32,000 nt of DNA from Pyrobaculum aerophilum str. IM2 (lineage in GTDB: Archaea; Thermoproteota; Thermoprotei; Thermoproteales; Thermoproteaceae): positions 1,530,001 to 1,562,000 of the forward strand of contig NC_003364.1 in NCBI RefSeq assembly GCF_000007225.1. The letters run 5' to 3'. Made by a program: the position numbers and the translations under genes. The notes beneath the pieces were generated by a model. It ran no database searches. It was not told the DNA's origin and saw nothing but the letters and a program-made list of their open reading frames with translations. The stretch's first letter is position 1. The number at the start of each line of letters is the position of its first letter. Shown here piece after piece: positions 1,527-18,374 of this stretch.

Positions 1527-1862
1527 TTAGACGCAGCCTGTGGGCTTCGGCGCGCCTGCCACTTTACAAGCTCCGTGCGCAGGCCCCGAGGGGAATAGCT
1601 GGTAGATTTTCTCCAAGGAGAAGCCCGTCTCTTTAGTGACCATTTTAATTGGCGGGCAGGAGCCGAAGGTCTCCCAATACTCCCTTAAGTATTTTACCAA
1701 CTTCCAATGCTCCTCGGTCATTTTTTGTATGCCCTCTAGCTCTCTGGCCAACCACTCAGCCACTTTTTCGTCCCAGTCCTCTGGGTTTTGCATAAAACAG
1801 TCCTCGTCTAGTATAACTTTTTTGCCATCAACTTGGTACTCGCCGGGACATTTCACTGGCAT
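1527..1862 (-). CDS. dsrC: DsrC/TusE-family protein (dissimilatory sulfite reductase gamma subunit)
   Basis: 111 aa with the characteristic C-terminal arm ...GACKVAGAPKPTGCV. It carries both conserved Cys residues: the penultimate Cys, and a second Cys with ten residues between them. Confidence 0.9.
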   Translation of the reverse strand: MPVKCPGEYQVDGKKVILDEDCFMQNPEDWDEKVAEWLARELEGIQKMTEEHWKLVKYLREYWETFGSCPPIKMVTKETGFSLEKIYQLFPSGPAHGACKVAGAPKPTGCV

Positions 1863-2816: not shown

Positions 2817-3965
2817 TCACAAGGCGTCTCTCAGCCTCTTATACACATCACCTCTGCCGCGGAATGTCAAGAACGTCCTGGCGAACTCGGGAACTCTCTG
2901 ATAGTAGTCGTGTACTTCCTTCAGCCCCACTAGCTCGAGGAATTTAGACCACCCAACTCTGTCAATAAAGTCCGCCAGCCTCTCGCCGGGCTTGGCGTGC
3001 TGACGCCACACCTCTATAACGTGTTTCACTACGGCGATAATTTCCTCATACCTAGGCGGCTTGGCGGGAAGCCAGGGAATTAACACTCTGGCCAACCTGG
3101 CGCCTCCACCTGTATTTGACATCTTCCCGCCGACGAGTATGGCGACTCCGACGTTTTCTGGGTCATAATCAAAGGCGTCGCAGTTCTCTTTACAACGGGC
3201 GCAGTTTATACACTTCTCGCCGAGGAGCACTAGCTTGACCTTATCGCCCTCTCTCCTCAAAGTGTGTGCGCCGGTGGGGCAGACTTGCACTAGGAATATT
3301 TGGCTTTCAGTTACCTTAGCTAATGCTCTTGGAGGCGGCAGACACATGCCGATAACCTCCTCTCTTATTTTCGGCGGGGCGCCCCACTGGCCCACAATAG
3401 CTATGTCAATGGCGGTCCCGCCTGCGCACATAGCAGGACAACCGGATACAAATATGCGTAGCTTGGCGGGGAGGCTCTCTTCTTTGAAATAGGGGGCTAA
3501 GGCGTCGCCCAAAGCTTTTGTAATACTGGGCGAATCAACTACTGCTGTAGTACACGTGAGAAATGCAGTACACGAATTTATTCCCCACATTGATCTACCC
3601 CACCCTCCCACTGGGAAGCCCATTTTCTCCACCTCTTCTTTTATCTTCAACGCCTTGTCTAGAGAGTCGGTGAGAATTTCCAAATTGCCGTTGCGGGTGA
3701 TTTTTATACCGCCGATGCCCAGCTTATCTGCAATATCTATAAATTTTCTCAAAGTCTCCGTGCTCATTCTGAAATTCGGCGGAGTGCCCACCTTTACGGT
3801 GAACACCCTATCCCCAGTTGAGGATATGGGTTCAATAATGCCGTAGCCGTGGAACTTCCTGTCCACCCACTTGCCCACATTGCGCCTTATTAACTCGGGC
3901 AACCACTCAGTGTAAGGAACTGGCAACCTCTTCTGAAGCCTCTGCGCGACGGGGTCGGCGGTCAT
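2817..3965 (-). CDS. dsrB: Dissimilatory sulfite reductase beta subunit, copy 1
   Basis: Siroheme/[4Fe-4S] Cys motifs SCTAFLTC (CX5C) and GCPAMC (CX3C), plus a ferredoxin insert CINCARCKENC. Start MTADPVAQ overlaps the dsrA stop (ATGA). Confidence 0.9.
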   Translation of the reverse strand: MTADPVAQRLQKRLPVPYTEWLPELIRRNVGKWVDRKFHGYGIIEPISSTGDRVFTVKVGTPPNFRMSTETLRKFIDIADKLGIGGIKITRNGNLEILTDSLDKALKIKEEVEKMGFPVGGWGRSMWGINSCTAFLTCTTAVVDSPSITKALGDALAPYFKEESLPAKLRIFVSGCPAMCAGGTAIDIAIVGQWGAPPKIREEVIGMCLPPPRALAKVTESQIFLVQVCPTGAHTLRREGDKVKLVLLGEKCINCARCKENCDAFDYDPENVGVAILVGGKMSNTGGGARLARVLIPWLPAKPPRYEEIIAVVKHVIEVWRQHAKPGERLADFIDRVGWSKFLELVGLKEVHDYYQRVPEFARTFLTFRGRGDVYKRLRDAL

Positions 3966-4613
3966 GGCCTCTTCCCGAAGTACTCCTCTACTATCTTGCC
4001 GGCCCAATTAGCCCACATTGTCCTCTCCTCGTCGTCTAGCACCGCGCCTGCTCTCAACGACGGGTGTAGAGTGGGCTTCCTCTCCTCATTTATGCCGAGG
4101 ATTTCCGTGAGGTATTTCTTAAACCCGACCTTCATAATAAAGTCGCCAATTCTGTCTTTATGCTTCACCACGCCCTTTTCCATGTACTCCATCCAGCTCT
4201 CCACAGTCTTTACCACCCAGTCCATGGCCTCCTCCACTGAGTTAACAACTGCCAACGGCTTGCCCATTTTGCCGCCGAATCTGCCCTTTACATGCCCGCC
4301 GACGACTACGGCTATTTTCACCTTCTTCCCCGGTTTTATTGCTGGGAACGCCGCTCTTATGCAGTGCATGGATTTTTTACACCTACTGCCGTCTATTTTC
4401 AACTCCTTACCGTCCCATGTAATTGCCCCGCTTGGGCAATTAGCTGCCAGCTTGGCCGGGTCCACCTCCCCAGCCTCAATCTTCCTCCTCAAAAGCTCTT
4501 GATCCACCTCAGGAGCGCCCTCCCAAACGCCAATAAAACCAAAATCAGCGCGATGAACAGCCCTGGTGCAGTCGAAGGGACAGCCGGAGAACTTCGCCTT
4601 GAACTTAAAGGGA
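3598..4613. repeat. Left arm of a 1016-bp inverted repeat (dsrA 3' part plus dsrB 5' part)
   Basis: Reverse complement of 16611-17626. Every stretch I compared by eye was identical. The ORF-track translations crossing the two arms are identical in pairs across the repeat (3996-4502 vs 16722-17228; 4292-4729 vs 16363-16932; 3556-3846 vs 17378-17677). Confidence 0.9.
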
Positions 4614-5209
4614 TAGTTGGGAGTGACAATGTTGTCATTTACGCGCTTGCCTTTGTGAAACTCCGCGTACCACTTCAAGGTGTCGTACAGGGCGAACTCG
4701 CAGAGGGCAGGCCCCACGCAGGCGTTTAGCGCCCTTATGGCGTCGCCGCTACCGCCTACATCTGTGCCTATCTCCCTAAGGGCGTCTACCATCTGCTCAG
4801 CGGTTTCGGGGGTGAGGTTTAAGACCAAGGCCCCCGTTTGCCCCACCAGCTCTATGAGGCCTACGCCCAACTCCCGTGAAATCTTAGTGATTTTCCTAAC
4901 GAAGTCGGTCCTCAAGAACTTCCCCGGGGTGTGGAACACTCTAAAGTGCACCTCACTGCCGCCCCCCGGGACCCAGTCTCTAGCCCACCTCGAAAGCACA
5001 CCAGTATTGACATATTCAACTTTTACGGCTGCTGGGCCCCAGGGGCTTTTCCTAGCCACTAGCCCCACTCCATATACGTGAAGCGGGTATCTTGTCTTTC
5101 TAAGCTCTGTCACGTGGCTGGGCCAAGGCCCCTTCTCAAGCTCTTTTAATACCTCCTCAGCCCTTTGTAGAAGCTCCTCTTTAGGCGGGAGACCAGGTGG
5201 AGCTGACAT
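3962..5209 (-). CDS. dsrA: Dissimilatory sulfite reductase alpha subunit, copy 1
   Basis: Motifs ACVGPALC (CX5C) and GCPFDC (CX3C), plus a ferredoxin-like segment NCPSGAI...CKKSMHC. I prefer ATG 5209 (MSAPPGLPP) to GTG 5224 because of the TATA spacing. Confidence 0.9.
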   Translation of the reverse strand: MSAPPGLPPKEELLQRAEEVLKELEKGPWPSHVTELRKTRYPLHVYGVGLVARKSPWGPAAVKVEYVNTGVLSRWARDWVPGGGSEVHFRVFHTPGKFLRTDFVRKITKISRELGVGLIELVGQTGALVLNLTPETAEQMVDALREIGTDVGGSGDAIRALNACVGPALCEFALYDTLKWYAEFHKGKRVNDNIVTPNYPFKFKAKFSGCPFDCTRAVHRADFGFIGVWEGAPEVDQELLRRKIEAGEVDPAKLAANCPSGAITWDGKELKIDGSRCKKSMHCIRAAFPAIKPGKKVKIAVVVGGHVKGRFGGKMGKPLAVVNSVEEAMDWVVKTVESWMEYMEKGVVKHKDRIGDFIMKVGFKKYLTEILGINEERKPTLHPSLRAGAVLDDEERTMWANWAGKIVEEYFGKRP

Positions 5210-5228
5210 GAGTAAAGTCAACACAGGG

Positions 5229-5240
5229 AAATATTTAACT
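5229..5240 (-). promoter_or_regulatory. TATA-like box for the dsrAB copy-1 operon
   Basis: Minus-strand ttaaatat (plus-strand 5231-5238) lies 22 nt upstream of ATG 5209, inside a 127-bp AT-rich spacer. Confidence 0.4.
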
Positions 5241-5351
5241 TATTAACTATTATTTGCTAATAACTTCTTTCTATTTACAAATACATTACTATAAAATTTT
5301 TTATTTGATTTAACAGAAATGGTGATAGAGGTATATAAGAATGCAATAGTG

Positions 5352-6011
5352 TCAAGATTTACACCTCCTTACAATTATTAAAACAGGTTTATACCCGTTA
5401 AAAGTATCGAGTTTTTCAATTTTTACTTGTTGGCAACTCCCGCCCATAGACACGGCGTGGCATACAAACACCTCTACTCCTTTTTTACAATTTCTCTCTA
5501 TTGCCCTCCTAACAACGTCCAGTCTCTCCCCCATCATGAAAATTACCGCTGTATCAGCCGCGATATTGCCCAAAATATCCTCGTCGAAGTGAGGAAAGGA
5601 GAATAGGGCTACGTGTCTCAAGGTCTTGCCGTCAGTCAGCTCAATTTTGTGTAAAGCCGCGGCTGCGGTGAAGGCGCTCACGCCCGGGACTACCTCGCAG
5701 GGAACTCCCCTAGCCTCTGCTTTTTTACATATTTGAATCCCCCTGCCGAAAAGAGTGGGATCGCCGTTTTTCAGAACAACCACCCTGGCCCACCCTGCGG
5801 CCTTTTCCACCAGCCTCTCAACTACGGCGTCGTGCTCAGACTTCTTATGTCCTATCTTTATTTTCTCGGCCTGCGGAGCGTACGTGTGCACCAGCTCCTC
5901 CGGCACTAAATCGCCGTAGGCCACAACGTCTGCCTCTCTTAACAACTCAACAGCCCTAAGCGTTAGGAGTTTGGGATCGCCGGGGCCTGCCCCCACTACG
6001 TAAATCGGCAT
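5352..6011 (-). CDS. cobA: Uroporphyrinogen-III C-methyltransferase (SUMT, siroheme branch)
   Basis: N-terminal tetrapyrrole-methylase motif IYVVGAGPGDPKLLTLRA, then GDPTLFGRG and VPGVSAFTAAAA. I prefer the start at the MPIYVVG Met. Confidence 0.85.
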   Translation of the reverse strand: MPIYVVGAGPGDPKLLTLRAVELLREADVVAYGDLVPEELVHTYAPQAEKIKIGHKKSEHDAVVERLVEKAAGWARVVVLKNGDPTLFGRGIQICKKAEARGVPCEVVPGVSAFTAAAALHKIELTDGKTLRHVALFSFPHFDEDILGNIAADTAVIFMMGERLDVVRRAIERNCKKGVEVFVCHAVSMGGSCQQVKIEKLDTFNGYKPVLIIVRRCKS

Positions 6012-6115
6012 AAAGCCTTGAGTAAATAGCCGATGTAGGCATAACTCTGCATAAGGCAACCACCTTTTCTCAATCCTCGGTAAATCCGTTGCTTCTCAGC
6101 TCTATTGCCCATATC

Positions 6116-6370
6116 TTAAGAAAAGGTTAATTCAAGTTTTATACTAGAAATTATGTGCGTTTCATCTAGCCACTTTTCCAATGCCTTAATACAAGACTTT
6201 AGCGTCTCAACATCATCAGCACTGCACCCAAAACGTACGGTTTCCCCAACAATTTCCGCTAGCCATACATAGTCTCCGTGATCTTTGTAGTATAAATTTT
6301 CACTTTTACTCCATCCGTATTTATTTAAAAGCTCAATAATCTCCTCGGGATCTGATACAACTATGATCAT
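6116..6370 (-). CDS. Hypothetical 84-aa protein, 4-nt overlap with the cysH stop
   Basis: ORF in the low-GC block. Its start overlaps the end of cysH (6367-6370). I recognised no motif. Confidence 0.5.
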   Translation of the reverse strand: MIIVVSDPEEIIELLNKYGWSKSENLYYKDHGDYVWLAEIVGETVRFGCSADDVETLKSCIKALEKWLDETHIISSIKLELTFS

Positions 6371-7170
6371 TTAATTTTGATCTTCAGCTTAAACACCGTT
6401 TCCATGTGCCTTTCAAATGAGCCTGCCTCCAGCGAGCAATGTATTCCGCACTCTTTCGGAGCGTTTTTCTCCCACCACCAACGCCCTTTTCTTAGCTCCT
6501 CTCCTGTCACATCCCCGAGGCTTACAAAGGTAGGCCTTGTACAGGGCTCGCACCCTATGCTAGTATAGCCGCGATCGTATAATTTGCAGTATGGCAAATT
6601 ATATTTCTTTATATACTGCCACACTTCGTCCCACGTCCAATCACATATAGGCGATATTTTTAATATTCCGTAATGATCGTGATCGATTTGGATTTTCCTT
6701 GTTGTAGCTCTTGTGGGGAATTGATCTCTACGTAAGCCTGTGATCCACGCGTCTAGTCCTGACAGAGCCCTCAGTAAGGGATTCACTTTTCGTATTTTAC
6801 AACATAAATGCCTAAGCTCTACGTCACGATAGAATGGATTAATGCCATATCTCTTTACAAATTCCTCAATTTCTTTAGTATCTGGATAGTAAATTTCTAT
6901 CTCAACGCCGTAGTGTTCGCGTACTTTGTCCACTAACTCATATATTTCTTCGGGCAAACGGCCGGTATCCAGCATAAAAACTCTAATCTTATCGGGAGCT
7001 ACTTTGTGCATAATGTCTAGCACTACTACATCCTCAGCTTGACCACTAAAGGCCAATGCTATATTGGGATAGAATTCATTAAGAGCCCAGCTTAATAATT
7101 CCTCAGCCGTAGAATTCTCAAACCTTAGGGACAGCTCTTCCACTTCTAAATCAGTCCACTCGCGCCTCAT
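6367..7170 (-). CDS. cysH: Assimilatory APS/PAPS reductase carrying the Fe-S cysteine set
   Basis: PAPS-reductase fold motifs (FSGQAEDVVVLD, catalytic KECGIH), plus the CC (HLCCKIR) and CxxC (GCEPC) cysteines typical of the [4Fe-4S] APS-specific class. Confidence 0.9.
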   Translation of the reverse strand: MRREWTDLEVEELSLRFENSTAEELLSWALNEFYPNIALAFSGQAEDVVVLDIMHKVAPDKIRVFMLDTGRLPEEIYELVDKVREHYGVEIEIYYPDTKEIEEFVKRYGINPFYRDVELRHLCCKIRKVNPLLRALSGLDAWITGLRRDQFPTRATTRKIQIDHDHYGILKISPICDWTWDEVWQYIKKYNLPYCKLYDRGYTSIGCEPCTRPTFVSLGDVTGEELRKGRWWWEKNAPKECGIHCSLEAGSFERHMETVFKLKIKIK

Positions 7171-7171
7171 A

Positions 7172-7783
7172 CTAACGCTCTACCTTTTCTGTATTTAAAT
7201 ATGTCTGATAATGAATTTTTTCCATGTAAAAGATATCTTGACCGCTTTTGCTGCATCTCACCAAATATCCGCTTCTTATCAGCTCTAGTATAATTGCGTG
7301 GGCCTCAGATAGGCTAATATTATCCCCGTGAACAGCCCTTAAATAATACATTAGGCAGTGTTCTAGTTGTCCCATAGGTATCGCCTTCCCTAAGCTTAAT
7401 TTCTTAACATTGCTTGTCATCATCTCTTCTCTTCTCGACATTTCCTCGGCTAAACCGCTCTTCTCTAAGAACTCCAGCGCATACAATGCGCGGATCGAGA
7501 CGTCGGCTTTCTTAGGCAACATGGGCCATAAGGTGGTTATAATGAAATAATGCAAAGCAATACCTCCCTCAACTTCTATATTACAAGATAAACCCCCCAA
7601 TTTATCTGACAATTTACTAAGACCTCTATAGAAAGTCTCTCCCCCGTACCACGTAGTATATATATCTTCCATCTCGGTATAGACGCAATCCATGGCGCAT
7701 GAGAGAGCCCATAAATATACGGCAAGTCTCTCCCCGGGCTCTAACGACTCAAGTATTTCAGCCACCGCCTTTTTAGTGATCAT
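7172..7783 (-). CDS. Hypothetical 203-aa protein embedded between sir and cysH
   Basis: ATGA overlap with the sir stop (7780-7783), and it ends 1 nt before the cysH start codon. The C-terminal part (ISLSEAHAIILELIRSGYLVRCSKSG) looks winged-helix-like. I recognised no family. Confidence 0.6.
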   Translation of the reverse strand: MITKKAVAEILESLEPGERLAVYLWALSCAMDCVYTEMEDIYTTWYGGETFYRGLSKLSDKLGGLSCNIEVEGGIALHYFIITTLWPMLPKKADVSIRALYALEFLEKSGLAEEMSRREEMMTSNVKKLSLGKAIPMGQLEHCLMYYLRAVHGDNISLSEAHAIILELIRSGYLVRCSKSGQDIFYMEKIHYQTYLNTEKVER

Positions 7784-9384
7784 TTTCCCAGCGCTAATTG
7801 TACTCCTAGTTTACCCGATATGTAATCAGCTAGTTCTCTTAAGTCTATTCTAGCAATGAAGGTAGGAAAGTCCTCACCTGGTGCCCGCTTATTGATGTAA
7901 TATTCAACAAGGTAAGTTATGCAGTCCTTAATCTTATCTGCAGGCACTTTTTTAAACAATACTTTGCCTATGGCGGTCCTTTTACCATAATCCCCTCCTA
8001 CTAAGACATCATACGCTTTAACAAACCTTCCATCAGGCATTTTAGCCGTGGTGGCCATAAGGCCTATGTTCCCAATCCAATACCATGCACAAGCGTGTGG
8101 ACAGCCCACAATATGTATAGGAGGAAGATCCTGTATTTCGCCGAATCTCTCTTTCAAGCTTTTTATTAATTCAAGTAGAAGTCCCTTCGTGTCGGAAATA
8201 GAGTAATTACAATAGGGATCTCCAGTGCAAGCCACAGACATGGCCACAAGAGGCGTCTGTTCTACAGCATAACCCCACTTCTGGCAAAACTCTTTCACGA
8301 TCTCAACCTTGTCCTCCGGGACGCCTGCTAGAATTAAATTCTGACGTTGCGTCAGCCTCACTTCCTTGACTCCCACAGCTTCTGCTAAATCTGCAAGCTT
8401 TATCAAGAACTCCCCTGTCACTATCCCTGCTGGTATGGCAACTCCGACAGCATATGTGCCGTCTTTAAGCCGTTCTACCCCTATATGATCGGTCTTGCCC
8501 AGAGACTCAGGCTTAGAAGGATAATCTTCCAGCCTTTGACCTAATCGATTTTCTACAAGCTCTCTGAACTTATCTACCCCAAGATCGTCGATCATAAACT
8601 TAATTCTAGCTCTAACACGGGAGAGACGATATCTAGGCTCTTCTCTCCAGACATCTAATACAGCTTTTACAAACTCAATAACCATTTCTCTAGGCACAAA
8701 TACTGGCATATGCCTTCCTACACGAGGCGCCAGAGAGAGACCGCCGCCAATCAGTACTGTATAACCGTATTTGCCGTCTTTGGTGACTCCTATCAAAGCT
8801 AAATCTTGAATTTCGGGTACGCTGCACATATAAGGACACGCGGTGATTGTGATTTTAAACTTCCTGGGTAAATCAGCATATATGGGATCCAAGAGAAAGG
8901 CCTTATCTATTTTATATACATCATCTCTAACATCAAACAACTCATTAACGGTAAGGCCTGCCAGAGGGCAAGTGGTTATATTCCTTACCGTATCCCCCTC
9001 TGTTCCTATAGTTAAAATCCCCACATCTTTTAACTGAGCAAGTACTTCTGGAAGGTACTTAAGCTCTATCCAGTGTAACTGGATGTCTTGTCTAACAGTT
9101 ATCTCGGCGTAATTCTTGCCATATTTATAAGACAATTCCCCAATTCTCCGCAATTGATGCGGTTTTAAAATACCACCAGGTATCCTAAGGCGTAACATGA
9201 GATACCCGGTCCTAGGCCTATCATGTACTACCCCTAGCCAGTATAACCTGATAAACTCCTCTTCGGGTATATCGCTGTAGTGGCGCCTAGCCAAGGTTTC
9301 CAGCTCCTCAAGTAATTTAAAGGGATGTTTGTCCCGTTTAATTTTCTCTATTAAATTCTTCTTGTAGACCTCCTCCCAGCTCAT
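7780..9384 (-). CDS. sir: Assimilatory-type sulfite (nitrite/sulfite) reductase hemoprotein, ferredoxin-dependent type
   Basis: Duplicated NIR_SIR architecture with the siroheme/[4Fe-4S] motifs ACTGDPYC (CX5C) and GCPHAC (CX3C). I prefer ATG 9384 (MSWEEVYKK) to GTG 9420. Confidence 0.9.
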   Translation of the reverse strand: MSWEEVYKKNLIEKIKRDKHPFKLLEELETLARRHYSDIPEEEFIRLYWLGVVHDRPRTGYLMLRLRIPGGILKPHQLRRIGELSYKYGKNYAEITVRQDIQLHWIELKYLPEVLAQLKDVGILTIGTEGDTVRNITTCPLAGLTVNELFDVRDDVYKIDKAFLLDPIYADLPRKFKITITACPYMCSVPEIQDLALIGVTKDGKYGYTVLIGGGLSLAPRVGRHMPVFVPREMVIEFVKAVLDVWREEPRYRLSRVRARIKFMIDDLGVDKFRELVENRLGQRLEDYPSKPESLGKTDHIGVERLKDGTYAVGVAIPAGIVTGEFLIKLADLAEAVGVKEVRLTQRQNLILAGVPEDKVEIVKEFCQKWGYAVEQTPLVAMSVACTGDPYCNYSISDTKGLLLELIKSLKERFGEIQDLPPIHIVGCPHACAWYWIGNIGLMATTAKMPDGRFVKAYDVLVGGDYGKRTAIGKVLFKKVPADKIKDCITYLVEYYINKRAPGEDFPTFIARIDLRELADYISGKLGVQLALGK

Positions 9385-9493
9385 CTTACGTTTTCTCGAA
9401 AAGTCGTTAAAAAGAAACACATTCCCTGAAAAATTTTCAAGGGAGAATTTTCACTTTTCGAATAGTTATAATTGGAAAACTTTCCTTCGGATC
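9385..9493. promoter_or_regulatory. Divergent promoter region between sir and the TauE/SafE gene
   Basis: A 109-bp AT-rich spacer. atagttataatt lies ~20 nt upstream of ATG 9494, and minus-strand ctttttaac lies ~21 nt upstream of ATG 9384. Confidence 0.4.
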
Positions 9494-10360
9494 ATGCCGA
9501 GCTATGCACTGGACCCCCTTATTGCAAGCATTATATTTTTTATAGCCTCTGTGCCAATGGGGGCTTTTGCGTATGGGTTTTCAAGCATTTCTGCCCCCCT
9601 ATTACTTCTATGGTATACAAATAAACAGGTAGTCCCCGTGTTAAACCTTATAGAAGTTTTTCAAAATACAGCTATGATAATAATGAACAGAAGGGGTCTT
9701 ACAAAACGAGTATTATTTCAGATATTACCTTTTGCAAGCGGCGTGGTACCGGGAATATTTCTTGGCGTATACATACTTAACTACGGCGATCCCCAGTTTC
9801 TCAAATTAATGGCATATTCGGTTTTAACGCCACTTGTTTTACTACAAGCAGCAGGCATAAGAAGACCTTTAGGCGCGACATGGCTCCCCATGACGGGGAT
9901 CGCCGTGGGAACGCTATATGGCTCAACTACAATCTCTGGTCCGTTAATAGCCCTAGTTCTCAACAACAACGGTTTAGTTAAGGATGAGTTTAGAGCTGGG
10001 ATGTCCGTAGTGAGAGTGATCGAATCATATTTCACGGCAACGTTATACTTAATACACGGTTATTTCACACTAGGTGTAGTGTATACCGCGGCTATAACAT
10101 CACTACCCATAATCTTGGGAATAGCGCTAGGCAGATGGATAGTAGCACATGTAAGGCCCGAGCTTTTTAGAAGACTTGTTATGAGTTTTGATGCGTGGGT
10201 AGTAGGATATGGTCTGTCCAACACAGCGGCACAATTAAAAATAATACCAGCAACCTGGGCACCATTGCTCTTCTTAGCGGTGGCACTTACAGATTCTTTA
10301 TTGTTCGTTTTATATCTAAGGGGTAGACTTCAGCCAAGAGTATTTGGTATACATGCTTAA
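9494..10360 (+). CDS. TauE/SafE (DUF81, TSUP) family anion permease, putative sulfite/sulfonate transporter
   Basis: 288 aa, very hydrophobic with ~8 predicted helices. Gly-rich helix motifs (GAFAYGFSSISAP, GTLYGSTTISGP) are typical of the two-repeat TSUP fold. Confidence 0.75.
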   Translation: MPSYALDPLIASIIFFIASVPMGAFAYGFSSISAPLLLLWYTNKQVVPVLNLIEVFQNTAMIIMNRRGLTKRVLFQILPFASGVVPGIFLGVYILNYGDPQFLKLMAYSVLTPLVLLQAAGIRRPLGATWLPMTGIAVGTLYGSTTISGPLIALVLNNNGLVKDEFRAGMSVVRVIESYFTATLYLIHGYFTLGVVYTAAITSLPIILGIALGRWIVAHVRPELFRRLVMSFDAWVVGYGLSNTAAQLKIIPATWAPLLFLAVALTDSLLFVLYLRGRLQPRVFGIHA

Positions 10361-10456
10361 ATAATAGTAATTTTAGTATTCAGCATTCTTAAAATTTCGC
10401 AATGACAATTTTTCATTATGCGGGATCTATAAAAAACCGTTAAGTAATTCCACATA

Positions 10457-10723
10457 ATGAAAATCTACGTAAAATTCCTAGGTCCTTATATGGAAAAAGC
10501 CGGCACATCGGACGACGAAGTGGAAATAGATAATGAGATTACGCTGGGTGAGCTACTAGAACTAATGGCAAGAAAATATAACATTACAGAGCTATTAAAC
10601 TTCCCCAATTCTCAAGAGGTAGCAGTTTTAGTTAATGGAACACAGGCTGATGATGTAAAAAAACGGCTGAGTGACGGCGATGAGGTGGTTATCTTACCAG
10701 CATTAGCCGGCGGATGTTCATAG
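10457..10723 (+). CDS. ThiS/MoaD-type ubiquitin-like sulfur carrier ending ...AGG-CS
   Basis: 88 aa with the beta-grasp pattern (KIYVKFLG...LVNG...DGDEVVILPALAGGCS). The diglycine is followed by two extra residues. Confidence 0.75.
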   Translation: MKIYVKFLGPYMEKAGTSDDEVEIDNEITLGELLELMARKYNITELLNFPNSQEVAVLVNGTQADDVKKRLSDGDEVVILPALAGGCS

Positions 10724-11409
10724 ATATAGACCATTTTAAGCTAAATGAAGTTATAATCATTGACGCAAGGCCGCGTATTTTTTATACGAAATCGCACATA
10801 AAAGACGCGGTAAATATTCCTATTTCTCAAATCATGGATCCCCTCACAGGTATGCCCAAACCTCCTGAGGAACTTTCAGATGTCTTTACTAATGCTGGTA
10901 TCGTGGAGAATGTGCCAATAGTAATATATGATGACTACCCCGGAGTTAATGCGGCCAGATTGGCGTGGACTTTACACTACTGTGGCTTAAAAAACGTAGC
11001 TATCATAAGGAAGTTCTTCAGATATATTTCTGCTCATCTCCCTATCGAAAACTCTAACGCCCCTCCTCAACGGGGTAGGGTTAGGTGTGTACAAAACCCA
11101 AATGTATTGGCGGATTACGACACTGTGAAGAATTATAAGGGCCTTATAGTAGATTTAAGAAGTCGCCGTGAATATATAAAGGGACACATAAAGGGGGCTG
11201 TAAACATACCATGGAGCGATCTCATAAATAATGAGGGCTTTTTAAACGATTATACATGGCTCCCACATGACGAGGAAGTGATCGTCTATTGTGGTCAAGG
11301 TCTCTACTCGGCCATCGGCTATGTGGCATATGCAGACTTGGGAATAAGGGTTAGGCTATATGCCGGAGGATATCAAGACTGGCTTAAACACGAAGCTAAC
11401 CAGGAATAG
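10714..11409 (+). CDS. Tandem-rhodanese sulfurtransferase
   Basis: Two rhodanese modules. The N-terminal one is inactive (YDDYPG). The C-terminal one carries the active-site loop VYCGQGLYS. It overlaps the carrier gene by 10 nt. Confidence 0.85.
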   Translation: MFIDIDHFKLNEVIIIDARPRIFYTKSHIKDAVNIPISQIMDPLTGMPKPPEELSDVFTNAGIVENVPIVIYDDYPGVNAARLAWTLHYCGLKNVAIIRKFFRYISAHLPIENSNAPPQRGRVRCVQNPNVLADYDTVKNYKGLIVDLRSRREYIKGHIKGAVNIPWSDLINNEGFLNDYTWLPHDEEVIVYCGQGLYSAIGYVAYADLGIRVRLYAGGYQDWLKHEANQE

Positions 11410-11536
11410 TTTATCGTTAAATTATCTCTTATAATTATCCCGGGCTCTTTATCATATGTATTTCCGTTAAGACGTTCGCCGTAGCTGTTTCTTGACGTGG
11501 GTGCACCTCTCTGCAAAACTTAGAGGCACGGGGCTT

Positions 11537-11847
11537 GTGGTGTTAGAGCTTTTAAAGCCTTGGAGAGATCCGGCGGGTTATAAGAGGGGAGGCTGTTGGA
11601 GGCCAGGTATGAGGCGGAGCTTGCGCTTAAGTTTTTAGAACAGGGGCTTTACAGAAACGCCGCCGGCAGGGCGTTTCAGGCGTGGAGAGCCTTGCTGGCG
11701 GCCATCGCCGTGGATTACGGCCACGTCATAGCCGAGAGTTTTAAGGGAGTTAAGGCGACTAGAGAGGACAAGAGGGTTTGCCTAGCCGATTTTATAATTG
11801 CCTTCACGCCCACAGGCTATATGCTGGCAGTAGCTAAGGCGTTATAA
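11537..11847 (+). pseudogene. PaREP1-family gene, apparently frameshifted near its 5' end
   Basis: The hallmark GLYRNAAGRAFQAWRALLAA is in ORF 11596-11847. The expected N-terminal LKPWRDPAGYKRG is in another frame just upstream (from GTG 11537/11540). The two frames join if the G4 run at 11586-11589 gains one G. Confidence 0.6.
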
Positions 11848-11930
11848 GACGTTACTGGGGTTAAACTCGCCGACTTGACTGCCCAAGATAGGAAGACATT
11901 ACACATTCTCGTCTCGTTCCCAATGATTAT

Positions 11931-13347
11931 TCAAAAAAATAAATTCTTCTCCCTTAAGGTATTGCCCTTGCCCGCACGCGCCGTAATGCCATACTGGCGC
12001 TGGAACGCCCAGAGAGTTGAACGGGAACACAAGGCCCTCAAGACGTTGTATGTGTAGGGGTGTATGTGTAAATACTGGGCGTGCATATTCCACTTAACCA
12101 CGCCGTCCCAGCCGCCCCCACTCCCACTCCCCTCTCCAGCCGTATTGCCAGCTTAGGCCTCTCTATATTATCCTTAGAGTAGTGAAACTCGTGGCCGATG
12201 ATCCTCGCCCCGACGGGGGCTATGGGAGTTTCGCCCACCACCTCCCCCCAGGCGTAGCCCTTGCCCACTGGCCTTTCGAGCATTACAGTGACGGCGTCTA
12301 AAGCCCCCACCATTTCGTACTCGCTCCTGTCTATTATTATAGAAGAAGTCATGTACATCAAGCCGCCGCATTCGGCGTACAGCCTCCCGCCCCCCTCTAT
12401 GTATTTCAACAATGCCCTTCTAAACGGCCTGTTCCTCTCCAGCCCCTCTGCCATTACCTCCGGAAACCCCCCGCCTACTACTACCACGTCTACAGGCGGA
12501 ACCTCTTGGTCTCTTAACGAGTCGAGAAATATTAAGTGCCCCAGAGAGGCCGCCTCTTCTAAAAGCTCGGGGTAGTAGAAGGTGAAGGCTCTGTCCATAA
12601 TTACGCCTATTTTACAGCCAAGGGGCTTGGGCGATTCGTCGGACAGATCTGCCTCCACCTCCCCGGCCCTTTTCGCTATAGACAATACGGCATCTAAGTC
12701 GAGGTGGGGCAAGACGTAATTCTCCAAAACCTCCACAATTCCGCTAGAATCAAGGCGCTCGTCAACAGGGACGAGGCCTAGGTGGCGGTAGGAAAAGGCC
12801 TCTGATATTTTCTTAGATTTAGGCACCACCCCCACCACCTCAACCCCCTCCTCTGGAATTGATTTAACAAGCTTCTCAGCCTGTCTGGGAGTTACATTTG
12901 TCAACACCACTCCCGCGATGTCCACCTGGGGGTCAAAGGCCCTCAGCCCCCTCACCACGGCCCTTAGAGTTCTGTTAACTCTCTCGCCGTTTAATACTAA
13001 AATCACAGGGGCTTTGAGAATTTTGGCCACCTGGGCAGTGGAGCCGGTTTCAGTAACGCCGTCTACCGAGTCGTACAAGCCCAAAACTCCCTCAATAATC
13101 GCAACGTCGGAGCCCGCGGCGTATTTAACAAACCTCTTCTTTACCCCCTCCACCCCCATTAACATAACGTCGAGATTTCTGCCGGGCCTTCCAGCGGCAA
13201 CTTTGTGGTAAGAGGGGTCGATGTAGTCAGGCCCGATTTTAAAAGGGGCTATTTTAAGCCCCCTTTTAGCCAGTCCGTAATCCCCAGGGATATAATAGTC
13301 TTGCCCGACATCCCCTTAGGCGCCGAGATTACCACGCGCGGGATCAC
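11931..13347 (-). pseudogene. CbiA/CobB-family a,c-diamide synthase (DsrN-like siroheme amidase candidate), disrupted by at least two frameshifts
   Basis: Three frames read in sequence. First: VIPRVVISAPKGMSGKTIISLG..LKGGLK* (13347-13249). Second: IAPFKIGPDYIDPSYH...GHEFHYS...LERGVGV. Third: GGGWDGVVKWNMHAQYLHIHP... (to TGA 11931-11933). The shifts coincide with the A4/G5 runs at 13252-13263 and the G5 run at 12115-12119. The 3' end is uncertain. Confidence 0.75.
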
Positions 13348-13396
13348 GTAAAAGCGTCGATGTAATTTAAAAACCTTTATTACCCAATTCCTAGAA

Positions 13397-13975
13397 CTAC
13401 CTCCTCCTGGCCTTCACCCTCAAAATCCCAGGCGCCGTGACGAGATCTGCGATTTCGTACCCCAAGTCCTCCAACATGCACTTAACTGCCGAGGCCGTGA
13501 CTTCGACGCTCTCCATGCTGTACCCCACTCCTATTGTGTCGAGGACGAACTCGCCTCCCTCCGCCTTGATTTCAAACCTCCTGGCGGGCACCACGTTGGC
13601 GAGGTATCTGGCAAAATATGTGGCGTTTTCCAACGTGCCGAAAACGGCCTTTATATACCCGGCCAACATCTTACCGGCCTCGCACCACACGCCCAAGGCC
13701 ACCTCTTTATTTAATTTAGACATCTCCACAACCATTTTATCCAGCAGGCGGCCGGGCACTGGCACAGTCTCTAACTCAGTCATAACTTTATAAAACGTGG
13801 CTATGTCTTTAATTTGTTGTACTGAAAAGCCCTCTTTTATTAACGTCAAGCCTACGCTTAATATCTGATTAGCCAGGGCGAATTGAGTAAATCCCATTGA
13901 CTCCGCCGTGTTTGCCAACTCCTCGGCCAGCTCTCTGGCTACTGCGATATTAACTCTGTCTTTCTTCGCGCTCAC
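13397..13975 (-). CDS. Hypothetical protein with a possible ribbon-helix-helix-like N-terminus
   Basis: 192-aa ORF with a GTG start. The N-terminus KKDRVNIAVARELAEELANTAESMG resembles a CopG/RHH strand-helix. The rest is unrecognised. Confidence 0.45.
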   Translation of the reverse strand: MSAKKDRVNIAVARELAEELANTAESMGFTQFALANQILSVGLTLIKEGFSVQQIKDIATFYKVMTELETVPVPGRLLDKMVVEMSKLNKEVALGVWCEAGKMLAGYIKAVFGTLENATYFARYLANVVPARRFEIKAEGGEFVLDTIGVGYSMESVEVTASAVKCMLEDLGYEIADLVTAPGILRVKARRR

Positions 13976-14051
13976 GAAATTTTATAAAACACACATTTTT
14001 ATGTTTAATTGTTATGTTAACGCGAATATGGCTGTGAAGTTTTGACTCCCC

Positions 14052-14444
14052 TTAAATACTCTGCCCCTCACTGTGTGAAAATATGCAATTTAAAACCCTC
14101 TTTGCTATCTCTCTGGCCAGTAACTCTACATACCCCCTCCCCAGCAAGTTCACCACCCCCCTCTGCCTTCCCCTGAAAGTCCACGTCTTTCCGTCAACTG
14201 TCAGCACGAACTCCAGCCTGCTGCCCGGCGCCAATCCAAAACCCTCGAAAAGAAGCTTTCCATTTCCAAGCCTCCTCTTAATGTAGAGCCTGGTTTTAGG
14301 CAGTAGCCACTTGTCCACATTTGGCTCAAAAATCGCGTAACCTCCCTCCTCTCCCACATATCTCCACCCCATGCACTGCATGACGGCGATGATCTCCACT
14401 TCGCCCACGGGCGCCTCTAGCTCGCCTCGGAGCTCAAAATCCAC
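14052..14444 (-). CDS. Hypothetical protein
   Basis: 130-aa ORF with a GTG start and coding-like composition. No recognisable motif. Confidence 0.4.
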   Translation of the reverse strand: MDFELRGELEAPVGEVEIIAVMQCMGWRYVGEEGGYAIFEPNVDKWLLPKTRLYIKRRLGNGKLLFEGFGLAPGSRLEFVLTVDGKTWTFRGRQRGVVNLLGRGYVELLAREIAKRVLNCIFSHSEGQSI

Positions 14445-14485
14445 GGCTTAATGTCTTTGTTATAAATACATATCTACACACCAAC

Positions 14486-15193
14486 ATGCGGGTTGTTGTC
14501 ACAAGCCCCTTCGCGGGAGAGGCTTTTACAAGAGTGTTAAAAGGCGTGGAGGTGGCCGTGGCCCCGGTGTTAAAACTAATGCCTGTGAAAGTAGAAGGGG
14601 AGGCGGTTGCGAGCGCCGTGTCGAACAGCGACTTGGTGGTCTTCGTCTCCGGCAGGGCGGCTTATAGGCTCAGAGAAGAGGGCATACGCCTAGATCTCGC
14701 CGGCAAGATCGTGGCGACGGCTGAGGGGAGAAAGGGGGCTGTGATGGTGAAAAACGCCTTTGGAGTAGAGCCGCAGTTAGTGGCCGACAGCGCGGAGGAG
14801 CTGGCACGGTTGATTGAGAGTTGCCGCGTCGCCACTGTGTTCCACCACGGGGAGCGGGCTGAGGAGTTGATGAAAAGGCTGAGCTCTCTGTGCAGCCGGG
14901 CGTACGAGTTCTTCACCTACAGGGCAGTGCCTGACGACGAAGCGCTCCGCGCCCTACCCCCCGGCGAGGTCTACGTATTTTTCAGCGCCCTGGCGGCTGA
15001 GCTTGTGGCCGCGCGGAGGAGGGACGTGTTAGAGAGAGCCGTTATCATCGCGGCGGGCCCTGCGGTGAAAGCCGCGTTGGAAAAACACGGCTTAAATGCC
15101 GCAGTCCCGCCGAGCGGGCGCATCGGAGAAGTCGCTTTATTTGTCAAGCGCCTTGTTGAGGAACTCGGCAACAGCCTCGGCCAGATAGGCTAA
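14486..15193 (+). CDS. Uroporphyrinogen-III synthase-like (HemD family) protein
   Basis: Two-lobed HemD-like pattern: VVVTSP...DLVVFVSGRAA...IVATAEG...VYVFFSALAAE...IIAAGPAVKAAL. Confidence 0.55.
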   Translation: MRVVVTSPFAGEAFTRVLKGVEVAVAPVLKLMPVKVEGEAVASAVSNSDLVVFVSGRAAYRLREEGIRLDLAGKIVATAEGRKGAVMVKNAFGVEPQLVADSAEELARLIESCRVATVFHHGERAEELMKRLSSLCSRAYEFFTYRAVPDDEALRALPPGEVYVFFSALAAELVAARRRDVLERAVIIAAGPAVKAALEKHGLNAAVPPSGRIGEVALFVKRLVEELGNSLGQIG

Positions 15194-15958
15194 AAAGGGC
15201 TTCTCGGGGACTATAACCCTCGTGACGCCGTATTTCCTCACCTCTTGCTCAGTCACGGGGCCCACAACCGCTATAACTGACCTCCCCGAATTCGCCGTCT
15301 CCACCACTTCGCGCAAAATGCCGGCGCGCTCAACGGCTTTGAGAAAGGCCTCGGCCCCCAGGGCGCTGGTGAAAATAAGTATGTGATTCCCCTCTAAAAA
15401 CCTCCTCGCCGCCTCCAAGGCGTTTGCCTCGGGGGCCTCCTCCGTTGTGTAGACCTGGACGTATTTGACGTCAGCGGCGATTTTCCTCAACTCCTCCAGA
15501 AGCTCTGAGTCAACAGCGCCGTAGAACGACACCACCAGCCTCTTCCCCCTCAGCGCCTCTGCCGCTCTTACGAGCAACTCGTCGGAGGTCTCGCCGTAAT
15601 TGGGGCACTCAAGGTGGAAGTGCGTCTTGACGTTGCCAGAGGCCTTCATTCCCCTGCAGAGGAGCTCCCTCTGCGAGAGGAGCGTCCTCACTTCCTCAAG
15701 CCTCTGCGCCCTTTTGGCCAGCTCGGCGAGACCCCACGCCGATTGGCCGGTCATGAATAACACGGCTTGTGACCACGTCAAATGGCCTATGACAGTGCTG
15801 ATATCGCTACCGCTCTCCTCCACTTTAACCGTTGGTAGGTATACGGGCTCTCCCCCCGCCTTTATTATGAGCTTGGCCAACAGCTCGGCCTTGGAGGGCC
15901 TCCCCGACGTGATAATCACCGTCCACTTGCCCACGCCCTCTATATATTCTACCTTCAT
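15137..15958 (-). CDS. Uroporphyrinogen-III synthase-like (HemD family) protein, second paralogue
   Basis: HemD-like pattern: VIITSGRP...AVLFMTGQSA...LIFTSALGAEAF...IAVVGPVTEQEVRKYG. The 3' end overlaps the convergent HemD-like gene by 57 nt. Confidence 0.6.
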   Translation of the reverse strand: MKVEYIEGVGKWTVIITSGRPSKAELLAKLIIKAGGEPVYLPTVKVEESGSDISTVIGHLTWSQAVLFMTGQSAWGLAELAKRAQRLEEVRTLLSQRELLCRGMKASGNVKTHFHLECPNYGETSDELLVRAAEALRGKRLVVSFYGAVDSELLEELRKIAADVKYVQVYTTEEAPEANALEAARRFLEGNHILIFTSALGAEAFLKAVERAGILREVVETANSGRSVIAVVGPVTEQEVRKYGVTRVIVPEKPFLAYLAEAVAEFLNKALDK

Positions 15959-16017
15959 AAGTCTTTATTTCACATTTAGGAGAAATAAGGGTTTTTAGAC
16001 TAGATCGATAGGCACTT

Positions 16018-17262
16018 ATGGAAGTTCGTGTAAAAAGGCCCCTTACAGTAGATGAATATGCAAAAGAGGGAATGGAGATGTTAAAATACTATGAGTCCGG
16101 CCCCTGGCCTAGCCACGTGGCGGAGCTGAAGAAGAGCAAATACCCCATTGAGGCATACGCCGCGGGGCTTGCCGCCAGGAAGACCATGTGGGCGGCCGGG
16201 TCGGCGAAAATAAGATATGTATACACTGGGTTTATCGCCCGCAGGACTCGCGACGGGAAAATAGCCGAGCTCCACTTCCGCGTATGGCAACCGTCAGGAT
16301 ATCTCTACAGCACTGAGAAGCTGAGAAAACTAGTGGACTTCGCCGATAAATACGGCCTTGGGCTAATAGAACTGGCGGGACAACAGGGACAGATGATAAT
16401 ATCCGTGAGGCCCGAGGTGGCCGATGAGGCAGTGGATTATTTGAGAAACGTAGTTGGTACAGATATCGGCGCCACTGGGGACACCATTAGAGAGCTGGCC
16501 GCGTGCGTGGGGCCCGCCCTCTGCGAGTTCGCCCTGTACAACACCTTGGAGGCCAGGGACAAGTTCTTGACCCATCCCAAGATATACGAGTGGATGTCCA
16601 ACCAGCTGTTTCCCTTTAAGTTCAAGGCGAAGTTCTCCGGCTGTCCCTTCGACTGCACCAGGGCTGTTCATCGCGCTGATTTTGGTTTTATTGGCGTTTG
16701 GGAGGGCGCTCCTGAGGTGGATCAAGAGCTTTTGAGGAGGAAGATTGAGGCTGGGGAGGTGGACCCGGCCAAGCTGGCAGCTAATTGCCCAAGCGGGGCA
16801 ATTACATGGGACGGTAAGGAGTTGAAAATAGACGGCAGTAGGTGTAAAAAATCCATGCACTGCATAAGAGCGGCGTTCCCAGCAATAAAACCGGGGAAGA
16901 AGGTGAAAATAGCCGTAGTCGTCGGCGGGCATGTAAAGGGCAGATTCGGCGGCAAAATGGGCAAGCCGTTGGCAGTTGTTAACTCAGTGGAGGAGGCCAT
17001 GGACTGGGTGGTAAAGACTGTGGAGAGCTGGATGGAGTACATGGAAAAGGGCGTGGTGAAGCATAAAGACAGAATTGGCGACTTTATTATGAAGGTCGGG
17101 TTTAAGAAATACCTCACGGAAATCCTCGGCATAAATGAGGAGAGGAAGCCCACTCTACACCCGTCGTTGAGAGCAGGCGCGGTGCTAGACGACGAGGAGA
17201 GGACAATGTGGGCTAATTGGGCCGGCAAGATAGTAGAGGAGTACTTCGGGAAGAGGCCATGA
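16018..17262 (+). CDS. dsrA: Dissimilatory sulfite reductase alpha subunit, copy 2
   Basis: Same Cys motifs as copy 1. The N-terminal ~200 aa are strongly diverged from copy 1, and the C-terminal ~216 codons are identical to it. Confidence 0.9.
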   Translation: MEVRVKRPLTVDEYAKEGMEMLKYYESGPWPSHVAELKKSKYPIEAYAAGLAARKTMWAAGSAKIRYVYTGFIARRTRDGKIAELHFRVWQPSGYLYSTEKLRKLVDFADKYGLGLIELAGQQGQMIISVRPEVADEAVDYLRNVVGTDIGATGDTIRELAACVGPALCEFALYNTLEARDKFLTHPKIYEWMSNQLFPFKFKAKFSGCPFDCTRAVHRADFGFIGVWEGAPEVDQELLRRKIEAGEVDPAKLAANCPSGAITWDGKELKIDGSRCKKSMHCIRAAFPAIKPGKKVKIAVVVGGHVKGRFGGKMGKPLAVVNSVEEAMDWVVKTVESWMEYMEKGVVKHKDRIGDFIMKVGFKKYLTEILGINEERKPTLHPSLRAGAVLDDEERTMWANWAGKIVEEYFGKRP

Positions 17263-17626
17263 CCGCCGACCCCGTCGCGCAGAGGCTTCAGAAGAGGTTG
17301 CCAGTTCCTTACACTGAGTGGTTGCCCGAGTTAATAAGGCGCAATGTGGGCAAGTGGGTGGACAGGAAGTTCCACGGCTACGGCATTATTGAACCCATAT
17401 CCTCAACTGGGGATAGGGTGTTCACCGTAAAGGTGGGCACTCCGCCGAATTTCAGAATGAGCACGGAGACTTTGAGAAAATTTATAGATATTGCAGATAA
17501 GCTGGGCATCGGCGGTATAAAAATCACCCGCAACGGCAATTTGGAAATTCTCACCGACTCTCTAGACAAGGCGTTGAAGATAAAAGAAGAGGTGGAGAAA
17601 ATGGGCTTCCCAGTGGGAGGGTGGGG
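16611..17626. repeat. Right arm of the 1016-bp inverted repeat
   Basis: Reverse complement of 3598-4613. A further identical 32-nt patch at 17643-17674 follows a 16-nt divergent gap. Confidence 0.9.
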
Positions 17627-18374
17627 GCCTACTCTGTGGTCTATAAATTCGTGTACTGCATTTCTCACGTGTACCACGGCGGTTGTAGACGCGCCGAGTA
17701 TTACTAAAGTGCTGTACGACCACTTAAAGCCCTACTTCACCGGAGAGGTGAAACTGCCGGCTAAGTTGAGGATTAACGTGTCGGGATGCCCCAGCTCTTG
17801 CGGAGGCTTTACCTCTGATATAAATATCGTCGGCCACTACGGAGACGCGCCGACTTACGACCCAGAGCGCGTCAAGTTATGTCTGCCTAAGTCGGCTAAG
17901 GCGCTTGAGATGGGCCACGTGCCCGAGGTGGCTGAGGTCTGCCCCACCGGCGCAATTAAAGTATACGGCAAGCCTGACGGCACCGTAGGCTTAGACGTCA
18001 TTAGGAGCAAATGCATTGCCTGCGGCCGTTGCCGCGACGTCTGCGACTGGATTGATTTCGACGAGTCTAAAGCCGGCGTGGCTATTTTAGTAGGCGGAAA
18101 GGCCAGCAACACTGGCCGCGGCCCCATGCCCTCTATACAAGTAATACCGTGGGTGCCCGCCATACCGCCTGAATATAGAGAGATCGTGGCCGTTGTGAAG
18201 ATAATTATAGACGTCTGGAGGACAAACGCCAGAGAGGGCGAACGTATCGGCGACTGGATAGCCCGGATTGGAATGGAGCAGTTCTACAAGCTCTTAGACA
18301 TACCTGTGACTAAGTGGAACAAGCCTGTAACGCTGGCCGGGGAATTCGGGATAAGACAGTTCGGCCCTATTTAA
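17259..18374 (+). CDS. dsrB: Dissimilatory sulfite reductase beta subunit, copy 2
   Basis: ATGA overlap with dsrA. The first ~122 codons are identical to copy 1 and then diverge (GCPSSC, CIACGRCRDVC). Confidence 0.9.
   Translation: MTADPVAQRLQKRLPVPYTEWLPELIRRNVGKWVDRKFHGYGIIEPISSTGDRVFTVKVGTPPNFRMSTETLRKFIDIADKLGIGGIKITRNGNLEILTDSLDKALKIKEEVEKMGFPVGGWGPTLWSINSCTAFLTCTTAVVDAPSITKVLYDHLKPYFTGEVKLPAKLRINVSGCPSSCGGFTSDINIVGHYGDAPTYDPERVKLCLPKSAKALEMGHVPEVAEVCPTGAIKVYGKPDGTVGLDVIRSKCIACGRCRDVCDWIDFDESKAGVAILVGGKASNTGRGPMPSIQVIPWVPAIPPEYREIVAVVKIIIDVWRTNAREGERIGDWIARIGMEQFYKLLDIPVTKWNKPVTLAGEFGIRQFGPI

Follow-up and report, generated by a model that had tools for sequence, protein, structure and literature searches.

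Sequence mosaicism pointing to gene conversion and inversion between paralogous dsrAB operons of Pyrobaculum aerophilum and its relatives

The finished genome of Pyrobaculum aerophilum IM2 carries on its chromosome two ancient paralogous dsrAB operons arranged head-to-head (inverted). We have followed up a first-pass annotation of the 32,000-nucleotide (nt) stretch that contains them (positions 1,530,001 to 1,562,000 of contig NC_003364.1, hereafter the window), in which the two operons share a perfect inverted repeat of 1016 bp. We consider it very probable that this repeat is the product of copy-2-to-copy-1 conversion by general recombination, with no dedicated recombinase, and that it represents one episode of conversion and inversion found throughout the family. 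For comparison with relatives, which were retrieved from genome and metagenome collections (the L-numbered loci), each operon was divided into the 5' half of dsrA (N), mid-dsrA (hot), the 3' part of dsrA (M), the 5' third of dsrB (B5) and the rest of dsrB (C), and N, M and C were assigned to type 1 or type 2. The features on which the argument turns are listed here, each accession being an exact protein match.

3598..4613, minus strand: arm 1, the putative recipient tract in operon 1, made up of the 3' 651 nt of dsrA1 and the 5' 368 nt of dsrB1 with a 3-nt overlap at ATGA
16611..17626, plus strand: arm 2, in operon 2 (the putative donor copy), identical to arm 1
3962..5209, minus strand: dsrA1, 415 amino acids (aa), AAL64289; an apparent mosaic of 199 N-terminal aa of type 1 and 216 C-terminal aa of type 2, typed N1M2
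2817..3965, minus strand: dsrB1, 382 aa, AAL64288; first 122 aa as in DsrB2, the rest type 1
16018..17262, plus strand: dsrA2, 414 aa, AAL64305, typed N2M2
17259..18374, plus strand: dsrB2, 371 aa, AAL64306
17627..17747, plus strand: imperfect continuation of the repeat at its dsrB end, paired with 3477-3597; past 17674 identity decays to about 70-80%
16456..16551, plus strand: homology island of 96 nt (80%), pairing with 4673-4768 and coding for the CX5C siroheme/[4Fe-4S] region (ACVGPALCEF)

Base-by-base comparison in the register x + y = 21224 gave 1016 matches in 1016 positions between 16611-17626 and the reverse complement of 3598-4613, and a repeat search returned a single long inverted pair in the whole window (3477-4613 with 16611-17747, 1137 nt, 97%). 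On the dsrA side, identity falls to background immediately left of 16611, and about 60 nt of unrelated sequence separates the block from the CX5C island. On the dsrB side, a 16-nt patch with 6 matches (17627-17642) is followed by 32 identical nt (17643-17674). The block takes in the last 216 codons of dsrA with the stop codon, the ATGA overlap (17259-17262) and the first 122 codons of dsrB. The perfect block, its abrupt dsrA-side edge, the 16-nt and 32-nt patches and the coding content had been described in the first-pass annotation and were borne out by the alignment and the translations, as was its description of the DsrA N-terminal parts outside the block as about half identical, for which we obtained 43% (85/196 aa); the DsrB C-terminal parts are 51% identical. 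The paralogous DNA flanking the block is only about 50-60% identical (about 55% between the operons) and the orthologous DNA of P. oguniense across the same block just 70-89%, so that the identity of the two arms cannot be put down to chance. Assemblies of the same DNA (L001, L002 and L004) cross the arm edges at 100% identity.

Origin and age of the shared block

The complete genome of P. oguniense TE7 has one operon of each type, N1M1C1 and N2M2C2, and serves as a reference for both. In the N segment, IM2 copy 1 is 78-79% identical to P. oguniense copy 1 versus 56-57% to copy 2, and in the C segment the corresponding values are 76-77% versus 53-55%. In the M segment the relationship is reversed: both IM2 copies are 51-52% identical to P. 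oguniense copy 1 versus 78% to copy 2. Separate phylogenies of block and flanks, which the first-pass annotation had proposed as a check, gave the same picture; in neighbour-joining trees the type-1 and type-2 clades have 100% bootstrap in N, M and C, and IM2 copy 1 falls into type 1 for N and C and into type 2 for M, again with 100% bootstrap each. Given that copy 1 is of type 1 in its flanks and of type 2 in M, operon 2 has overwritten operon 1 between the two edges. On these affiliations the block is a gene-conversion tract, with copy 2 as the probable donor and copy 1 as the recipient. Operon 1 of IM2 is thereby N1-M2-C1, the sole operon of this type among 47 that were typed (with an identity filter, as DsrB queries cross-match DsrA at about 30% identity). 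No M1-type sequence is present within the window, and the 133 DsrA homologues that a search of 5.8 billion proteins returned included no M1 close to that of IM2, N1M1 occurring in other species only.

Very close relatives of IM2 bear on the age of the event. A contig of the metagenome-assembled genome (MAG) JAOAJA01, 12,199 nt long and 99.58% identical to IM2, comprises the spacer between the operons and 99 nt of each arm; its copy 1 has type-1 bases at 6 positions in the first 22 nt of the IM2 block. In strain NMUF01, type-1 sequence is kept about 75 nt further in. The assemblies of JAOAJA01 and NMUF01 both break at the repeat. Since there are no differences over 1016 nt in IM2 and the edges lie elsewhere in near-identical strains, homogenisation must have occurred later than, and independently of, the split of these strains. 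The sequences thus strongly support the view that conversion in P. aerophilum is recent and recurrent or ongoing. The earlier suggestion of recent, patchy conversion between old paralogues is upheld in both respects, by the position of copy-1 M within the copy-2 clade (100% bootstrap) and by tract edges that vary between strains. A second, older tract that spans M, with 91-100% identity, is found in L091.

Most probably, general homologous recombination of the RadA type replaced about 1 kb of operon 1 by the sequence of operon 2. This tract runs from mid-dsrA through the divergent 3' part of dsrA to the first third of dsrB, and the type-1 M segment of dsrA1 would have been erased in the process. 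In relatives, the hot and B5 tracts are islands of near identity, and the IM2 block begins and ends where these islands have their outer limits; its right edge, for example, is also that of a 291-nt perfect tract in L011. We infer that the event, presumably non-reciprocal, was a double-strand-gap repair for which the hot tract in mid-dsrA and the B5 tract at the start of dsrB served as anchors.

Concerted evolution and inversion among relatives

The hot tract is 84-100% identical between paralogues in every two-copy genome and about 71-88% identical between genomes. Consistent with this, sequences in the hot-segment tree group by genome, and the groupings of IM2, of P. oguniense, of L013 and of L011+L090 each have 100% bootstrap. 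The two DsrA paralogues of Thermoproteus tenax (complete genome) are 100% identical at aa 241-280, a region in which orthologues are 80% identical. The longest exact inverted repeat of a two-copy relative is between 31 and 291 nt, the upper value being that of L011; in P. oguniense TE7 it is 224 nt. These observations show continual homogenisation of the hot tract within individual genomes of Pyrobaculum and Thermoproteus, i.e. concerted evolution. The comparison shows the conversion in IM2 to be one episode of a family-wide process.

Copies at two-copy loci are inverted in nearly all cases. At L094 (ERZ1684501 NODE-10, 138,720 nt; locus 329-973, 6055-8345), a C2-type dsrB fragment lies upstream of, and on the same strand as, an N1M1C1 operon, and the copies there may run in the same direction instead of being inverted; an exact inverted repeat is practically lacking at this locus (16 nt). 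The P. islandicum/neutrophilum-like operons (L106-L111, L113, L114, L120 and L155), about 75% identical to type 1, form a clade in which we found only N1M1C1 and no second copy within the retrieved flanks. Some Pyrobaculum lineages may have copy 1 alone.

The 47 typed operons comprise 23 of type N1M1C1 and 14 of type N2M2C2, 6 of type N2M1C1 and 3 of type N1M2C2, and the N1M2C1 operon of IM2; reciprocal recombinants therefore make up 9 of the 47. Typed DsrA proteins were N1M1 in 40 cases, N2M2 in 29, and N1M2 and N2M1 in 7 each. The recombinant arrangement was seen in L013, L012, L092, L115, L118 and L136, and L013 and L012 place it in more distant lineages as well. The most informative comparison is between two loci from separate samples, L100 (JGI Ga0197142_1002616), which is parental, and L090 (ENA ERZ27245883 k141_53871), which is recombinant. 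These are about 100% identical except for a crossover zone of about 200 nt in the hot tract, and what distinguishes them is solely how the central segment is oriented: the N2 copy of L090 runs into the M1-C1 of L100 and its N1 copy into M2-C2. Similarly, L090 aligns to L011 in three segments, plus/minus/plus, as expected of an inversion. The exact repeats in the L100 and L090 contigs are only 93-109 nt long and the final k-mer of the L090 contig was k141, and mis-threading during assembly is therefore unlikely. The pairs L093/L115 (99.6-99.9% identical) and L097-L098/L118 (98-99%) show the same inversion-like pattern and are suggestive of further inversion polymorphisms.

We conclude that crossovers in the hot tract repeatedly gave the reciprocal arrangement at these loci, which amounts to inversion of the segment between the copies. 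Given that relatives share just a short hot tract, such an exchange makes chimeric DsrA (N1M2 and N2M1), and the chimeric-DsrA operons of relatives have intact open reading frames (ORFs). The end points of crossovers and tracts vary between strains and lineages, and the coding homology involved is 0.1-1 kb long.

The predicted flip in IM2, the spacer and alternative explanations

The perfect repeat would be an excellent substrate for inversion in IM2 itself, and the features that would be carried or re-paired by such a flip are as follows.

4614..16610, no strand: invertible segment of 11,997 nt with both dsrA 5' halves and their upstream regions, the siroheme genes and the assimilatory module
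5210..5351, minus strand: dsrA1 upstream region, AT-rich, with TTAAATAT about 25 nt ahead of the ATG; putative promoter 1
15959..16017, plus strand: dsrA2 upstream region; putative promoter 2
1527..1862, minus strand: dsrC (PF04358), downstream of operon 1; linked to C1-type dsrB in relatives too
18376..18861, plus strand: ORF of 161 aa (orf161), directly 3' of dsrB2; kept beside C2-type dsrB in relatives
6100..11900, no strand: assimilatory module of low G+C (0.40-0.44), with PAPS/APS reductase, assimilatory sulfite/nitrite reductase, TauE, ThiS-like, rhodanese and PaREP1

Inverting 4614-16610 in silico keeps all ORFs and yields the same four polypeptides. The joined halves being identical, DsrA1, DsrA2, DsrB1 and DsrB2 are unchanged by the flip, and there would be no domain shuffling in IM2. 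What would change is the pairing of the operon parts: promoter 1 and the dsrA1 5' half would be joined to the dsrB2 3' part and orf161, and promoter 2 and the dsrA2 5' half to the dsrB1 3' part, orf88 and the dsrC neighbourhood. Both promoters are assigned, tentatively, from AT-rich, TATA-like sequence. Thus, the inversion geometry proposed by the first-pass annotation (11,997 bp, ORFs unbroken) holds, with reciprocal exchange of this kind seen in relatives. Its proposal of domain shuffling can be kept only in part, as a swap of operon pairing and promoter context in IM2 with shuffling of DsrA N- and C-terminal parts confined to relatives, and its idea of a switch finds no backing in either the gene content of the spacer or the mixed junction contigs considered below.

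Several metagenomes contain contigs that match IM2 at 100% identity, and two of the source projects, PRJEB12287 (Schirmer 2016) and PRJEB52977 (Meslier 2022), are mock communities with IM2 DNA. Reference junctions were found in L001, L002 and L004 and recombinant ones in L003 (N2+block+C1), L007 and L087 (N1+block+C2). Short-read and k-mer contigs cannot phase 1016 bp, and a 3 versus 3 mix of junctions is therefore what random graph resolution would be expected to give. Three further contigs (L005, L006 and L008) begin exactly at 16611. The N1/block and block/C1 junctions recur in independent datasets, a PacBio run included (L004, L087 and L003).

The siroheme genes of the spacer are cobA-like, cobB/dsrN-like and two hemD-like genes, and the complete list of its family matches is HEM4, CbiA/GATase_3, PaREP1, Rhodanese, ThiS, TauE, NIR_SIR, PAPS_reduct and TP_methylase. 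No recombinase family is among the Pfam and NCBIfam matches of the spacer and flanking genes. The spacer of P. oguniense lacks the assimilatory module and has only cobA, cobB/dsrN and two hemD-like genes. The operons are about 180-300 nt apart in L011, L090 and L100. The absence of the module from P. oguniense and the short spacers of relatives indicate that the spacer grew by insertion in the P. aerophilum lineage. The module (about 6100-11900) has a G+C content of 0.40-0.44 versus about 0.52. We also observed that the cobB/dsrN-like a,c-diamide synthase gene (12038-13347, minus strand) is missing the first approximately 60 residues relative to the family profile and that, compared with the 99.2%-identical JAOAJA01 gene (437 aa), it has a 4-nt deletion (TGTA) after nt 70, and hence is frameshifted in IM2.

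Other explanations of the locus have to be weighed against conversion and inversion by general recombination. Purifying selection on a conserved protein region, acting without recombination, might be considered because the hot tract codes for the CX3C cluster motif and a ferredoxin-like domain and its protein is 74-92% conserved between genomes. It would have to explain 100% identity at all synonymous sites over 1016 nt, though, in a block across which orthologues differ by 11-30% and which includes the M region, where paralogues elsewhere have about 33% protein identity; moreover, the hot tract groups by genome and not by paralogue. The within-genome versus between-genome comparison refutes purifying selection as the sole cause, and we assign it next to no probability. 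An assembly artefact, in which copy-2 DNA was threaded through a diverged true copy 1 by way of shorter hot and B5 repeats, is very unlikely. Relatives do have such repeats (L011, for example, has a 100% hot tract in addition to its perfect B5 tract) and many short-read contigs, the three named above among them, break at 16611. IM2, however, is a finished isolate genome, no IM2-like type-1 M turned up in the protein search described above, the left edge at 16611 differs from those of two other strains, which is unexpected of a generic graph error, and k-mers of the junctions at either end of arm 1 are found in independent datasets too.

The invertible-segment geometry, in which 5' gene parts are swapped as in hsdS or pilin shufflons, might also suggest a site-specific invertase acting on the arms, either as a phase-variation switch or as a shufflon. 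We regard this as slightly less probable even than the assembly artefact: none of the spacer or flanking genes has a recombinase among its family matches, the arms consist of coding homology over 1 kb and are not short sites, and crossover points differ between lineages. A stronger competitor is an adaptive flip-flop switch, whereby frequent reversible inversion re-pairs promoters and DsrA N-terminal modules with other DsrA C-terminal and DsrB modules and keeps clonal populations mixed in their operon configurations for bet-hedging or regulation. In its favour are the occurrence of both junction types in mock-community contigs of IM2, near-identical natural populations that differ in orientation alone, recombinant operons that are intact and common (9/47), and the inverted order of the copies in nearly all two-copy loci. 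Against it, contigs do not phase the repeat and the junction mix is as random graph resolution would produce, the IM2 flip yields no new protein, neither a recombinase nor a regulatory element was found, and inverted orientation is expected anyway, as direct repeats would delete one copy. We therefore think a switch unlikely. The broader proposition, that the inverted dsrAB pair of the Thermoproteaceae is a recombinase-independent flipping device with both orientations present at appreciable frequency in clonal populations, IM2 cultures among them, and a hot tract selected for isoenzyme or expression combinations, is to our minds equally doubtful.

We favor conversion and inversion by general recombination, and there are points that weigh against this interpretation too. 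The orientation of IM2 and the interior of arm 1 (though not its junctions) rest on assemblies. In the pairs L093/L115 and L097/L118 the exact repeats are 140-254 nt long, so that mis-threading is possible there. Gap repair is deduced from the coincident tract edges only, and selection, besides the mechanics of repair, may have a part in shaping the recurrent edges. Four small spacer ORFs (84, 118/130, 192 and 203 aa; coordinates 6116-6370, 14052-14444, 13397-13975 and 7172-7783, respectively) have no family match and make a novel recombinase formally possible.

With regard to the identity of the operons, dsrA precedes dsrB in one operon with an ATGA overlap. DsrA1 scores 396.5 bits against the dsrA equivalog TIGR02064, over its cutoff of 392.85, versus 331.7 bits for DsrA2, for which this is the best family even though the score is under the cutoff; DsrA2 also aligns to A. 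fulgidus DsrA (3MM5_A) with E = 3.7e-55. Because the C-terminal 216 residues are common to DsrA1 and DsrA2, the gap between these scores sits in the N-terminal half, and N2 is, by this score, the less canonical DsrA N-terminal module. DsrB1 and DsrB2 score 445.9 and 354.7 bits against TIGR02066 (cutoff 341.5). All four translated subunits retain intact siroheme/[4Fe-4S] cysteine motifs (CX5C...CX3C), as ACVGPALC and SGCPFDC in both DsrA and as NSCTAFLTC and SGCPAMC/SGCPSSC in DsrB. Judged by family models, gene order, motifs and the nearby dsrC, both are operons for DsrAB, a dissimilatory-type sulfite reductase. An alternative start of dsrA1 at GTG 5224 (420 aa) had no exact protein match and was rejected in favor of the recorded ATG at 5209 (415 aa).

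Two further observations concern the remainder of the window. The aprA (APS reductase alpha) frame at 2-919 (plus strand) has an in-frame TAG at 422-424, in the context GAG CGG TAT TAG GAA ATT GTG, that splits it into two ORFs, and the genes called on L004, a contig obtained independently in a PacBio run of IM2 DNA, have the same split (462 + 162 aa); aprA may be a pseudogene, or the stop may be read through or recoded. Between operon 2 and sat, 20693-22399 (plus strand) codes for a fusion of the SelD-related putative sulfur-metabolism protein 'HyperS' with an acylphosphatase domain (NF038049, 679 bits), and its neighbours (19674-20696, 22396-22764) are two TusA-like genes and one DsrE-like gene.

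Significance and comparison with known systems

The archaeal-type DsrAB of Pyrobaculum, Thermoproteus and relatives stand at or near the root of the DsrAB tree and have been used to reconstruct how dissimilatory sulfite reduction originated and to date that origin (PMC4351914, PMC7174415, PMC12948486). Our results indicate that the dsrAB genes of the Thermoproteaceae are mosaics of at least three modules (N, M and C) of differing history, with a tract that evolves in concert within genomes. Because of this mosaicism, concatenated DsrAB trees and node calibrations that include these genes can mislead, and it would be advantageous to analyse DsrAB segment by segment or without the converted tracts. 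Short-read assemblies and MAGs break or mis-thread at the dsrAB locus. Chimeric DsrA and mixed operons have survived in nature, so that the isoenzymes appear able to exchange their DsrA N-terminal halves, and the locus can be regarded as a natural experiment in DsrA modularity. For a hyperthermophilic crenarchaeon, it is also a clear case, open to testing, of homologous recombination leading to concerted evolution and inversion. The public long reads of PRJEB52977, from PacBio Sequel II (ERR9765783, mean about 10 kb) and Oxford Nanopore Technologies (ERR9765780-82), could be used to measure the frequency of the flip in IM2.

There is precedent for more than one dsrAB operon in a genome: Chlorobaculum tepidum has two nearly identical copies and Moorella thermoacetica a second copy (PMC2702494, PMC4351914). 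Like the operons considered here, these are duplicates; the literature presents them either as recent and nearly identical or as deeply divergent. In the literature searched, dsrAB appears as a single-copy operon or as simple duplicates, and no mosaic, concerted evolution or inversion polymorphism is described for any dsrAB; nor is there an account of conversion or inversion between the copies of Pyrobaculum.

The hsdS and invertase shufflons use short repeats, usually a dedicated tyrosine or serine recombinase, and regulated phase variation. The dsr locus resembles them in having repeats inside paralogous genes, in the swap of 5' and 3' halves with ORFs intact and, in relatives, in the new DsrA combinations that result; it differs in having no recombinase family match and in giving no new protein in IM2. 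Plastid inverted repeats are 10-25 kb long and give flip-flop isomers in about equimolar amounts, with no gene loss. The common element is general recombination between long perfect inverted repeats, which gives two orientation isomers, although the dsr repeat, at 0.1-1 kb, is far shorter than those of plastids.

The nearest counterpart known is the tufA/tufB pair of Salmonella and E. coli, inverted duplicates that co-evolve by conversion and between which recombination generates chromosomal inversions (PMC5485169, Paulsson et al. 2017; see also Abdulkarim & Hughes 1996 and Hughes 2000 on tufA/tufB conversion and inversion, as cited in PMC6735719). The evidence for tuf is experimental and that for dsr, in a hyperthermophilic archaeal host, comparative. 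In both systems two inverted paralogues lie on one chromosome, recombination-dependent conversion tracts, probably non-reciprocal in dsr too, have variable end points, and the same recombination can end as inversion of the intervening segment with no dedicated recombinase. The tuf genes are about 99% identical over their full length and have the same function, whereas the dsrAB paralogues are deeply diverged, at about 45-55% identity, apart from their islands. Unlike the tuf tracts, the dsr tract crosses a gene boundary, from dsrA into dsrB, and the crossovers of relatives give chimeric proteins, the N1M2 and N2M1 forms of DsrA.

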